This document shows positions 5,435-7,670 of a DNA stretch of 64,000 bases, piece after piece. The number at the start of each line of letters is the position of its first letter. Within the stretch, counting starts at the first letter, position 1. The translations under genes and the position numbers were made by a program. The stretch is taken from positions 68 through 64,067 of the forward strand of contig JBAZAX010000007.1 of the NCBI GenBank assembly GCA_041671765.1, given 5' to 3'. The DNA is from Candidatus Babeliales bacterium. Its GTDB lineage: Bacteria > Babelota > Babeliae > Babelales > RVW-14. A model generated the notes under the pieces. The model did no database searches, was not told where the DNA came from, and worked only from the letters and a program-made list of their open reading frames with translations.

Positions 5435-6490
5435 ATGAAAAAAAGTTTATTATTAACGCTTTTGACGTTAACTGCATTTCAGGTTTCAAGTAAAGTTTAC
5501 ACTATGAAACAAGACCAGGACGAAACTTCGAAAAAACGAGATCGTGAGGATCAGTCAAGAGAAGGGAAAGCCCCTGATGCAACACGAAGTAAACAAGATG
5601 CACCCAAAGGCGCCGAAGGCCAAGACCCTGAAGGTGCTGCACAGATAGCAGTGCCGGCAGCCGCCGCTGCAAGTGCCGAAGCCGCAGAAAATCGATGTGG
5701 AATTTGTTTTAATGATTTTGGGTCAAAAAATGAAGCTGGACAAGTTGTTACACAAATAAAACTTCCTTGTTGTAGTTATACAATTTGTGAAAAATGCTTA
5801 GAAGACGCCTTAAAAACTCGTCCCGTCTGTCCTCAATGCAGTGAACCAATTTCAAATCTAAAAATGCTTAAAGACAAAATAGTTGTTGCAATGATGCAGC
5901 GAAAAATTAAGGAAAAGAAAGACAGAATCAAAAAAGAACACGAAGAAGCAAGAGGACGTGAAAAAAGGGAACAAGAGACTGCTCGAATACAAGAGCAAAT
6001 CAGAAAATTTTCTTCCGGAGAGGATATTACGGCATATGTTGATGTTCCCGGAGATACTTTAGTAAATGTTTCATTCATATTAAAATTAAGAAACGCAGAT
6101 GACGAAGGACTCACAGTCTCTACTCAGCTACCTATACTACATTTTTTAGCCAAGGGTGGACCTGATGGACACGATGAATTTAAAGACGCTTTTGAACTTG
6201 TAAAATATTTTGTAGAAGAAAAGCATGCCAATATTAATCAAAAAGTAAGAGTTCCGGATCAAACCAAACGCTTTTATGGGAGAGGTGTTTTTGGAATAGA
6301 TGAATTTTTTAGAATAAATCCTTTCCAAGAAGATAATTTCGTAGAATTAACCCCATTGGAAATTGCTGAAGTATACGGAAATCACAGTATTGCTGCATAT
6401 CTGCGTGGTAAGATTGCAGAACAGCAAGCAGCTCAAGCTCGCGAAGCTGCCGAACGACACGCACCACCTGAGAAATGTGCTATACAATAA
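5435..6490 (+). CDS. leader-bearing RING-like zinc-finger protein with basic coiled-coil, possible degenerate ankyrin repeats and C-terminal CaaX box (CAIQ)
   Basis: Leader MKKSLLLTLLTLTAFQVSS. Eight-Cys cross-brace-like CGIC..PCC..CEKC..CPQC. K/E/R-rich helix. TPLEIAEVYGNHSIAAYL is ANK-like. Ends EKCAIQ*. GGAGG SD. Confidence 0.7.
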   Translation: MKKSLLLTLLTLTAFQVSSKVYTMKQDQDETSKKRDREDQSREGKAPDATRSKQDAPKGAEGQDPEGAAQIAVPAAAAASAEAAENRCGICFNDFGSKNEAGQVVTQIKLPCCSYTICEKCLEDALKTRPVCPQCSEPISNLKMLKDKIVVAMMQRKIKEKKDRIKKEHEEARGREKREQETARIQEQIRKFSSGEDITAYVDVPGDTLVNVSFILKLRNADDEGLTVSTQLPILHFLAKGGPDGHDEFKDAFELVKYFVEEKHANINQKVRVPDQTKRFYGRGVFGIDEFFRINPFQEDNFVELTPLEIAEVYGNHSIAAYLRGKIAEQQAAQAREAAERHAPPEKCAIQ

Positions 6491-6536
6491 TTATTGATTA
6501 GCTCAATTATATTTATATATTTATGGAGGTTATATC

Positions 6537-7670
6537 ATGAAAAAGAGTTTATTAGTTGCTTCTGCATTTTTTTTAATCACTTCGGTGATAAATGAAAACG
6601 CATTTGGAATGGAAAAAAAAGAAGAAGAATCAAAAAAACGTCATACCTCTGTTGGCAAACCAACTCCGAGTGCAAAGCCAGAAAAACGTCGAAAAAGTCA
6701 AGAAGACACAGCTGAAGACACTGTTGTTGTTGATGATCATCAACAAATTGCAACCAATTTTGCATTAATAGGACAGCTGGCCAGACAAATGCAAGTAAAC
6801 CAGACGCCAGAAGACGCCGCGTTATTGGCAGCAGCACCGGCAGTAGAACAAGCTAGCTCCTCAGCGCCCAAACCAGAAAAAATGGAAATAGAAAAAACAG
6901 CAAGAGAATCTGAATTAACCGATTCGTTGCGACAAGCACTTACTCCTATTTTAGGAGTAAAATTTCACGTAATAGAGTTGCAACTTGAAGATCTATGCGA
7001 AGGCCAAAAGGGAATAAAGACAAGCCAAAAAAGATTAGAATCAGGCCAAACAAGAGTTGAAGCAGCAATCGAAAGAATATCTACAAATCAAGCAGCAGCA
7101 AGGCTACAATTAACAAGACTTGAAGATGCAACACAACAAAACAATGTTCTTATTGTAGCTGTTAGAGGAAATGTTACTGAGATAAATCGACAAATCACTG
7201 ACCTAACCCAACGCACTACTGAAATTGGCCGACAACTTACACAACTCGATGGACGCGTAAGAACTGAATCCGAACGATCTGCAACCGAGCATCAAGACCT
7301 TCGCAGACACATTGATCAACTTGTTAGAGTAACAAGTGGAGCTCCAATAACGTTACTTTTATTTGTTGCAGCGGCAACAGGAGTCCCATTATATTTGCTA
7401 CAAGGAATAATTACAGCGGGAATTGGAACAACAGTAACGGTTTTGGCAACAAATCAAGCATACCCAATTTGCTTACAAATAGCCCAAAACCCCGCAATTC
7501 AATTTATCTGGCGTCACATTAACATCAGAAGAGCCCATGCTGAAGAAGCACAGGCACAGCAAGCCCCAGCACCAGTAGCCCCCCCAGCAGCCGCACCAGT
7601 TGAACAAGCTCAAGATCAGCATCAAGCACCAGTGGCTCCTGCAGAACAACATCACTGTGAAATAATGTAA
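6537..7670 (+). CDS. leader-bearing coiled-coil membrane protein with C-terminal CaaX box (CEIM)
   Basis: Leader MKKSLLVASAFFLITSV. Long heptad-like region (LQLTRLEDATQQNN..EINRQITDLTQRTTEIGRQLTQLDGRV). Approx 40-aa bilobed hydrophobic stretch. A/P/Q-rich tail ending HHCEIM*. Confidence 0.7.
   Translation: MKKSLLVASAFFLITSVINENAFGMEKKEEESKKRHTSVGKPTPSAKPEKRRKSQEDTAEDTVVVDDHQQIATNFALIGQLARQMQVNQTPEDAALLAAAPAVEQASSSAPKPEKMEIEKTARESELTDSLRQALTPILGVKFHVIELQLEDLCEGQKGIKTSQKRLESGQTRVEAAIERISTNQAAARLQLTRLEDATQQNNVLIVAVRGNVTEINRQITDLTQRTTEIGRQLTQLDGRVRTESERSATEHQDLRRHIDQLVRVTSGAPITLLLFVAAATGVPLYLLQGIITAGIGTTVTVLATNQAYPICLQIAQNPAIQFIWRHINIRRAHAEEAQAQQAPAPVAPPAAAPVEQAQDQHQAPVAPAEQHHCEIM

Follow-up and report, generated by a model that had tools for sequence, protein, structure and literature searches.

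Conserved CaaX boxes at the C-termini of Sec-leader proteins of a Babeliales bacterium point to effectors probably prenylated by the host

Some bacterial effectors, among them Salmonella SifA, end in a CaaX box (a cysteine, two residues termed a1 and a2, and a terminal X) and are prenylated by the host. Legionella pneumophila AnkB, in which such a box follows an F-box and two ankyrin repeats, is farnesylated by the host farnesyltransferase (FTase) and anchored to the vacuole membrane, and the Legionella survey of CaaX proteins took in pathogens with type III-VII secretion systems (PMC2916131). The Legionella Pel proteins PelC and PelE are likewise host-prenylated effectors (PMC13081727). Here we describe four genes, P1 to P4, in a 64,000-nucleotide stretch of Candidatus Babeliales bacterium (assembly GCA_041671765.1, contig JBAZAX010000007.1, positions 68 to 64,067 of the forward strand; hereafter the window), whose products join a Sec-type leader at the N-terminus to a CaaX box at the C-terminus. 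Four exact C-terminal boxes in excess of chance, their conservation in homologues and the presence of eukaryote-directed modules in the same proteins make host prenylation the best reading; at a probability of roughly 0.7, the sequences suggest that the four proteins are effectors of an obligate intracellular bacterium and that their boxes are used by host prenyltransferases. By analogy, the strategy would be functionally that of Legionella AnkB and Pel and of Salmonella SifA, what is new being the phylum, the Sec-type leaders and the modules (RING, PAM2 and a coiled-coil hairpin). In open-access full text we found no paper joining Dependentiae or Babela with CaaX, prenylation or lipidation.

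The likeness to AnkB lies in a ubiquitin-ligase module carried on a CaaX-ending protein, and a relative of P1, P0043, has the layout of F-box, ankyrin repeats and CaaX; P1 itself differs in having a RING in place of the F-box and in belonging to the phylum Dependentiae, and it shares no demonstrated sequence homology with AnkB. As with the Pel proteins and SifA, several unrelated effectors of one genome would have in common only the CaaX box as a host-membrane address. Those proteins, however, are substrates of type IV or type III secretion systems (T4SS, T3SS), whereas in each of the Babeliales candidates a Sec leader that looks cleavable precedes a conserved Met. We know of no injection system in the phylum Dependentiae. 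Sec-dependent effectors of cytosolic bacteria, such as Rickettsia RARP-1 (Sec-TolC) and Listeria LLO, are signal-peptide proteins that act in the host cytosol, and host N-degron rules act on the N-terminus that signal peptidase makes on LLO; unlike what is proposed for P1 to P4, none of these is, to our knowledge, prenylated. Among eukaryotic CaaX proteins, lamin B1 ends in CAIM, as do orthologues of P2; K-Ras4B has a polybasic stretch and CVIM, to which the polybasic stretch and farnesyl-type box of P3 correspond; the Leu-type box of P4 recalls geranylgeranylated proteins such as G-gamma (CAIL); and farnesylated proteins with X=Q, as in the boxes of P1 and P3, are known (CENP-E and CENP-F, CKTQ and CKVQ). 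Homology to these eukaryotic proteins is nevertheless limited to the four residues, and the genes here are bacterial ones with Shine-Dalgarno (SD) sequences and Sec leaders. Lastly, P2, with a coiled coil and a bilobed hydrophobic domain of ~40 residues, and P3 may be similar in general build to the chlamydial Inc proteins and the SNARE-like Legionella YlfA/YlfB (PMC4961411), bacterial proteins inserting into membranes of the host or the vacuole, but have no type III/IV signal or sequence similarity to them and carry a CaaX terminus in addition.

The four CaaX proteins and the conservation of their boxes

Re-translation bore out the reading frames, endings and Cys codons that a preliminary description had given for the tandem pair P1 and P2 and the endings of two further open reading frames (ORFs), P3 and P4, as well as its claim that all four start with MKK or MKR and a hydrophobic stretch:

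5435..6490, plus strand: P1, 351 aa; leader, RING finger, long helix, alpha/beta domain and CaaX box CAIQ; ends ..PPEKCAIQ, then stop
6476..6487, plus strand: CaaX box CAIQ of P1 (farnesyltransferase type, X=Q); Cys codon 6476-6478
6537..7670, plus strand: P2, 377 aa; leader, charged linker, long coiled coil, bilobed hydrophobic domain, A/P/Q tail and CaaX box CEIM; ends ..EQHHCEIM, then stop
7656..7667, plus strand: CaaX box CEIM of P2 (farnesyltransferase type); Cys codon 7656-7658; CAIM in most orthologues
27012..27716, minus strand: P3, 234 aa; leader, soluble domain, hydrophobic segment, polybasic stretch and CaaX box CSLQ
27126-27206, minus strand: hydrophobic segment of P3
27027-27056, minus strand: polybasic stretch of P3
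27015-27026, minus strand: CaaX box CSLQ of P3
53544..56294, minus strand: P4, 916 aa; leader, N-terminal domain, low-complexity linker with PAM2, large helical C-terminal domain and CaaX box CSIL
53547-53558, minus strand: CaaX box CSIL of P4 (geranylgeranyltransferase-I type)

The same description had called these proteins orphans and a family of host-prenylated effectors. The former holds only in part: no NCBIfam profile matches P1, P2, P3 or P4, but P1 proves to be a RING protein and P4 to contain a PAM2 motif; as to the latter, they form four unrelated protein families rather than one, with leader type and tail in common. Profile searches of PDB sequences with the P3 and P4 families gave no match, and the RING domain of P1 is the only part of the four proteins with relatives of solved structure. 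The CaaX Cys is the sole Cys among the 234 residues of P3, and P1 has no cysteines other than this one and the eight of its RING.

Conservation of the terminal Cys in orthologues had been proposed as a check, and the Cys is kept in all complete homologues of P2, P3 and P4 and in 6 of 11 members of the P1 family. The details are as follows: 1) In the P2 family all 8 complete homologues (67-90% identity) end in HHC[A/E]IM, despite tails rich in substitutions and indels. 2) In the P3 family 9/9 end in CS[L/I]Q behind a lysine/arginine-rich stretch, at identities down to 29%. 3) In the P4 family 6/6 end in WC[S/T]IL, at identities down to 42%. 4) In the P1 family the six boxes are CAIQ (three times), CTIQ, CIIQ and CSIQ, and P0022, P0037, P0023, P0042 and P0043 are among the members that keep one. 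Mean pairwise identity is 0.85-0.89 over the last four columns of the family alignments as against 0.24-0.66 over the preceding 30, and in P2 the A/P/Q tail reaches only 0.41-0.58 as compared to 0.89 for the last four residues. Within the box, a1, which is exposed, varies among A, E, S, T and I, a2 is I or L only, and X, which selects the enzyme, is constant within a family (Q, M, Q and L for P1 to P4, respectively), which, as far as alignments can tell, is the pattern that prenyltransferase specificity predicts. Judged by these sequences the box is under selection, and we regard its conservation as the decisive evidence.

The apparent exceptions are of three kinds. P0020 could be dismissed as a counter-example because its contig runs out into adapter sequence, translated as EIGRAHV:

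L087 1370-1418: Illumina TruSeq adapter (AGATCGGAAGAGCACACGTCTGAACTCCAGTCAC) ending a metagenome contig and producing the false C-terminus of P0020

P0036, the P1 orthologue in L081, could be dismissed likewise: in the region L081 8527-8770 an 18-bp insertion with TAATAA stops it early, and as the DNA 3' of the insertion still encodes ..APPEKCTLQ and a stop, the sequence indicates a recent loss or an assembly error. Four distant homologues of P1, P0038, P0039, P0040 and P0041, have no CaaX box and end instead in tails of the FLGxLFG..KKK type that are hydrophobic and then basic (FLGRLFGSLISKKK, FLSRLNPFKKS, FLGNLFGWFNKKK and GLFSRVFNK). By analogy these may be an alternative membrane-binding C-terminus, and they are consistent with selection for such a terminus. 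AnkB of the Legionella strain Paris has a di-lysine motif in place of CaaX (PMC5506055), and resembles the distant P1 homologues in this exchange of the box for a basic C-terminal tail.

The estimate that about one protein of the window should have Cys at position -4 by chance also stood: in the 64 non-overlapping ORFs that reach 60 aa, where Cys makes up 1.5% of residues, 4 are observed as against 0.96 expected (binomial P=0.016), the other positions from -1 to -12 having 0-2 Cys each. Canonical boxes, defined by a2 in ILVMF and X in MQSACLF, number 4 as against 0.114 expected (P=5.9e-6, a value not to be over-read, the residue sets having been set post hoc from our knowledge of the enzymology). 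The enrichment that had been called for is thus clear within the window for canonical boxes and less so for a bare Cys at -4. In 965 ORFs from 72 control loci of Bacteroidota, 12 have Cys at -4 and none a canonical box. A pooled count over all Babeliales loci (13 canonical boxes) was set aside, those loci having been fetched via the CaaX proteins themselves. Sampling by the flanks of DnaA yielded 8 Babeliales loci among 80, which contributed CaaX proteins of the P3 family only, and a metagenome scan with the P3 alignment returned 3 loci. On the sequences at hand, CaaX proteins recur within this genus-level group; in six more distant Babeliales loci (L003-L008, ~90 ORFs) no CaaX protein was seen, and the trait is therefore claimed for the genus-level group and not for the phylum as a whole.

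A separate observation concerns three of the sampled loci: L001, L003 and L004 are titled 'uncultured Pseudomonadota bacterium', and their DnaA is 62-92% identical to that of the window, with synteny and the P3 family in common. The taxonomy of these metagenome-assembled genomes is probably mislabelled.

Eukaryote-directed modules

Three CaaX proteins contain modules that are directed at eukaryotic partners: a RING in P1, a conserved PAM2 motif in P4, and an F-box with ankyrin repeats in the P1 relative P0043. The first of these is located as follows:

5693..5839, plus strand: RING finger (C4C4) of P1; Cys 88, 91, 112/113, 118, 121, 132, 135

It scores 29 bits against Pfam zf-RING_2 (cutoff 27.3), and its eight Cys are spaced C-x2-C...C-x2-C...C-x2-C. 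In an AlphaFold2 (AF2) model of P1 with a predicted local distance difference test score (pLDDT) of 74, the RING region superposes on the RINGs of RNF4, Rad18, RNF168 and RBX1, with match probabilities of ~1.0 for RNF4, RNF168 and RBX1. With the eight Cys/His ligands of a cross-brace RING in both sequence and model, P1 is a predicted E3 ubiquitin ligase. After the RING come a long helix and an alpha/beta domain for which no relatives are known; an impression by eye that this C-terminal domain is ankyrin-like was abandoned, the model being alpha/beta and Foldseek matching the RING only. Among 1.84 billion representative proteins searched, none from a eukaryote was homologous to P1 over its full length, the matches being weak and confined to the RING.

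The N-terminal module of ~80-90 residues, consisting of the leader and a charged linker, has been exchanged between families. P0022 has a mostly P1-like body with the N-terminus of P2, and P0043 of the same sister genome (L088 10001-11473, GCA_043808975.1) joins the N-terminal module of P1 (49% identity) to an F-box that scores over both Pfam cutoffs, ankyrin repeats and the box CSIQ. Going by these domain assignments, P0043 is built like Legionella AnkB. Some 7 kb away lies a gene for an ankyrin protein with the ending CNIQ (L088 18113-18856, minus strand). The same locus also encodes, at L088 19725-20621, a protein of the leader-Met type described below with a cyclin domain.

The PAM2 motif of P4 and the parts of P2 are:

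55389..55433, minus strand: PAM2 motif of P4, KSKLNPDAPAFIPSF, of the type that binds the MLLE domain of poly(A)-binding protein; Pfam PAM2 21.5 bits (cutoff 20)
6900..7331, plus strand: long helix/coiled coil of P2 (aa 122-265); AF2 model, pLDDT 84-93 over ~aa 150-240
7329..7451, plus strand: bilobed hydrophobic domain of P2 (aa 265-305); near-invariant in orthologues, with one or two conservative changes
7533..7655, plus strand: A/P/Q-rich tail of P2; length and sequence vary among orthologues

The core LNP[D/E]AP.F.P of the PAM2 motif is invariant in five orthologues although it lies within a variable low-complexity linker; in the most distant orthologue the motif scores 17.1, under the cutoff. 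From the alignment, such an invariant island in a variable linker is the hallmark of a short linear motif that would function toward the MLLE domain of poly(A)-binding protein. The P4 sequence LNPDAPAFIP matches the key Leu, Ala, Phe and Pro of the eukaryotic PAM2 proteins Paip1/2, ataxin-2 and eRF3; unlike these, P4 is bacterial and its binding to MLLE is predicted from the motif. No paper on a bacterial PAM2 mimic was found in open-access full text. The hydrophobic segments of P2 (aa 265-305) and P3 (aa 171-197) are conserved and show neither homology to Inc proteins nor a type III signal, while P1 and P4 have no hydrophobic segment other than the leader. The whole model of P2 has a pLDDT of 54.6, too poor for a fold search, and is of low confidence at the hydrophobic domain.

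A leader-Met class, export and the competing explanations

The leaders of the four proteins, and the SD sequences that precede three of them, have features in common beyond the general signal-peptide layout:

5418..5434, plus strand: Shine-Dalgarno/5' cassette TTTATGGAGGTTATATC of P1
6520..6536, plus strand: Shine-Dalgarno/5' cassette of P2, identical to that of P1
27709-27733, minus strand: cassette of P3, 3 mismatches
5435..5503, plus strand: Sec-type leader MKKSLLLTLLTLTAFQVSSKVYT of P1, followed by conserved Met24 (5504-5506)
6537..6608, plus strand: Sec-type leader MKKSLLVASAFFLITSVINENAFG of P2, followed by conserved Met25 (6609-6611)
27654-27656, minus strand: conserved post-leader Met of P3
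56211-56213, minus strand: conserved post-leader Met of P4

A strong SD sequence (GGAGG) precedes the leader ATG of P1, P2 and P3, and a 25-nt 5' cassette, TTTATGGAGGTTATATCATGAAAAA, is the same before P1 and P2 and differs at 3 positions before P3. The leaders meet the conserved Met at the junctions FG|ME, YS|ME, YT|MK and FG|ME in P1 to P4, respectively, and all leader-bearing homologues that were examined have this Met, at identities down to 29%. In a heuristic scan that detected n and h regions and a residue A, G, S or T before the Met, the class, in which the Met is usually followed by E, K or Q, comprised 19 of 66 leader-bearing Babeliales ORFs as against 6 of 247 Bacteroidota controls (Fisher 9e-10). 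In the window it covers all leader-bearing ankyrin, RING, PAM2 and CaaX proteins, and housekeeping envelope proteins lie outside it. That the internal Met is the true or an alternative start was rejected, as GGAGG is placed 7-8 nt upstream of the leader ATG and the internal ATG has no such sequence in front of it; the leader ATG is hence the real start. A lipoprotein reading was rejected as well, position +1 being Met and not the Cys of a lipobox in all four proteins and their homologues. We infer from the sequences that signal peptidase I cleaves just before the Met, so that the mature protein starts with it. The Met possibly serves for recognition in a further step of export, or gives the protein an N-terminus that can be acetylated and is stabilising in the host cytosol.

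If these elements act together, translation would begin at the leader ATG, where the strong SD lies, and Sec export would be followed by a cut by signal peptidase I before the conserved Met, as the n-h-c layout and the small residues at -1 suggest. The outer membrane might be crossed, for instance, via a type IV pilus/PulD-like secretin, in outer-membrane vesicles or upon lysis, and the mature protein would then be in the host cytosol, which is plausible given that related Dependentiae live in the host cytoplasm. There, host FTase would act on CAIQ, CEIM/CAIM and CSLQ and geranylgeranyltransferase I on CSIL, presumably followed by processing by Rce1 and ICMT as in Legionella AnkB. The lipid would hold the effector domains at a host membrane, aided by the polybasic stretch in P3 and the hydrophobic hairpin in P2 and P3; P1 would be a membrane-anchored RING ubiquitin ligase, the PAM2 motif of P4 might recruit a protein with an MLLE domain, be it poly(A)-binding protein or another, and P2 might be a coiled-coil, Inc- or SNARE-like membrane protein. 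A wider and more tentative proposal, which we hold to be possible rather than probable, is that the Babeliales possess a Sec-dependent effector pathway in which a leader class with an invariant Met at the mature N-terminus reaches the host cytosol without a type III/IV/VI injector and is finished by host enzymes through CaaX prenylation and possibly through N-acetylation or escape from N-degrons.

How a Sec leader can be combined with prenylation in the host cytosol had been put forward as a puzzle, and what is described of Dependentiae, namely the use of Sec, a pilus/PulD channel and vesicles (PMC6561590), makes it less paradoxical than stated, the outer-membrane step remaining. In Chromulinavorax signal peptides are found on 44% of the coding sequences and 78% of the ankyrin proteins, the genome has genes for Sec, a type IV pilus and a PulD-like channel, the cells release vesicles and the replication body is located in the host cytoplasm (PMC6561590); a bacterium inside the cytoplasm need only move proteins across its own envelope. 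Dependentiae are without complete metabolic pathways (PMC6561590), and hence a bacterial supply of prenyl donors is unlikely. A dedicated injection system (T3SS/T4SS) is not indicated here, since the leaders are Sec-type and the window only has a type IV pilin gene (57270-57752).

Several points weigh against prenylation by the host. Besides the marginal enrichment of the bare Cys at -4 and the post hoc choice of residue sets, X=Q and a1=E are rarer than textbook boxes, the more distant Babeliales loci sampled showed no CaaX protein, a Sec leader targets the periplasm, a step short of the host cytosol, and the hydrophobic hairpins of P2 and P3 could keep these proteins in the bacterial inner membrane. 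The last two points feed the main alternative, which we consider unlikely: that the conserved terminal Cys motif serves the bacterium as a disulfide tether in the periplasm or at the surface, as a metal ligand (HHC, WWC) or as an as yet undescribed envelope-sorting signal, and never meets a host prenyltransferase. All four proteins have leaders whose default destination is the envelope, the hydrophobic segments of P2 and P3 could span the inner membrane, and His-His in P2 or Trp-Trp in P4 directly precedes the Cys. Yet the residues before the Cys differ from family to family (EK, HH, ES and WW) and the box alone is common to them, the variation at a1, a2 and X suits the specificity of eukaryotic prenyltransferases, and RING, PAM2 and F-box have no target in a periplasm; nor do we know of any bacterial system that reads a C-a-a-X terminus.

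Another scenario accepts prenylation by the host and has the proteins held by their hydrophobic segments on the bacterial surface or on vesicles, with the lipidated tail going into host membranes, so that they would be tethers between the bacterium and host organelles in place of free effectors. It draws on P2 and P3, in which a hydrophobic hairpin is conserved and the tail that carries CaaX is long and flexible, and on the replication bodies of Chromulinavorax, which are tightly wrapped by a host mitochondrion, with vesicles budding from the cells (PMC6561590). It is improbable too, and purely inferential; P1 and P4 lack such a segment outside the leader, and no known mechanism puts alpha-helical hairpins into the outer membrane. 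That the boxes arose by chance, or are functionless relics left from genes newly acquired from a eukaryotic host, is very improbable indeed. The enrichment of Cys at -4 taken alone is marginal, and RING and PAM2, as modules of eukaryotic type, might be acquisitions, but the box is kept beside fast-evolving tails in four families, three of which extend to 29-42% identity, the canonical boxes exceed expectation at the P-value given above, and P1 has no full-length eukaryotic homologue in the set of representative proteins searched. Prenylation by the host thus remains the reading we prefer.

Genomic setting and implications

The window contains dnaA, uvrB, genes for MacAB/Lol-type transporters and a type IV pilin gene, which places it on the chromosome of one of the Dependentiae (TM6), close to the replication origin; every cultured member of this phylum is an intracellular parasite of protists (PMC6561590). 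The AT-rich, ankyrin-rich setting given in the preliminary description is accurate, with a GC content of ~35% and three ankyrin proteins in the window. The eukaryote-like leader-bearing proteins of the window are these three, the RING protein P1 and a second RING-like protein (24.2 bits, under the Pfam cutoff). The three ankyrin proteins and the second RING-like protein are without a CaaX box, and prenylation would therefore mark only a subset of the putative effectors.

18773-19381, 37917-39134, 49544-50467 and 50969-51649: the three leader-bearing ankyrin proteins and the RING-like protein
1246-2205 (minus strand), 9830-10030 (minus strand), 14642-15409 (minus strand), 18773-19381, 24617-26728 (minus strand), 37091-37795, 37917-39134, 48275-48886, 50969-51649 and 51664-52434: further leader-Met ORFs

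One of these, at 9830-10030 on the minus strand, encodes a strongly acidic leader-bearing protein of 66 aa (MKKSLLLALAFVAVAGYVMAEEDTT...). The stretches compared in its homologues in L081 and L082 are identical to it, while the adjacent orphan proteins diverge.

P1 and P2 are flanked by a gene for a VanY/M15 peptidase and one of the MacB/LolE type. The slot between these flanks holds two leader-CaaX genes in the window, three in GCA_043808975.1 and one in GCA_001468855.1; the three are a truncated P1 orthologue, a RING paralogue ending in CTIQ and a P2 orthologue. The compared slots are:

Window 4953-7890; L081 7398-11390; L082 9775-11415: VanY/M15-MacB/LolE slot

Conserved CaaX boxes on Sec-leader proteins would extend the strategy of effector prenylation to a little-studied and globally widespread phylum of protist parasites without known injectors. 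They supply candidates for study, namely a RING ligase with a predicted membrane anchor, an F-box protein like AnkB, a putative PAM2 mimic aimed at poly(A)-binding protein and possibly Inc-like membrane proteins, and a rule for mining effectors from metagenomes, in which a leader and Met at one end are combined with CaaX at the other. As prenyltransferases are cytosolic, a prenylated Babeliales protein would prove that Sec-exported proteins reach the host cytosol, and the boxes would be natural reporters for the delivery route of Dependentiae. Should the tentatively proposed Sec-dependent pathway be true, the delivery of the hundreds of signal-peptide-bearing 'eukaryote-like' proteins of the Dependentiae would become directly testable, with CaaX lipidation as the reporter.

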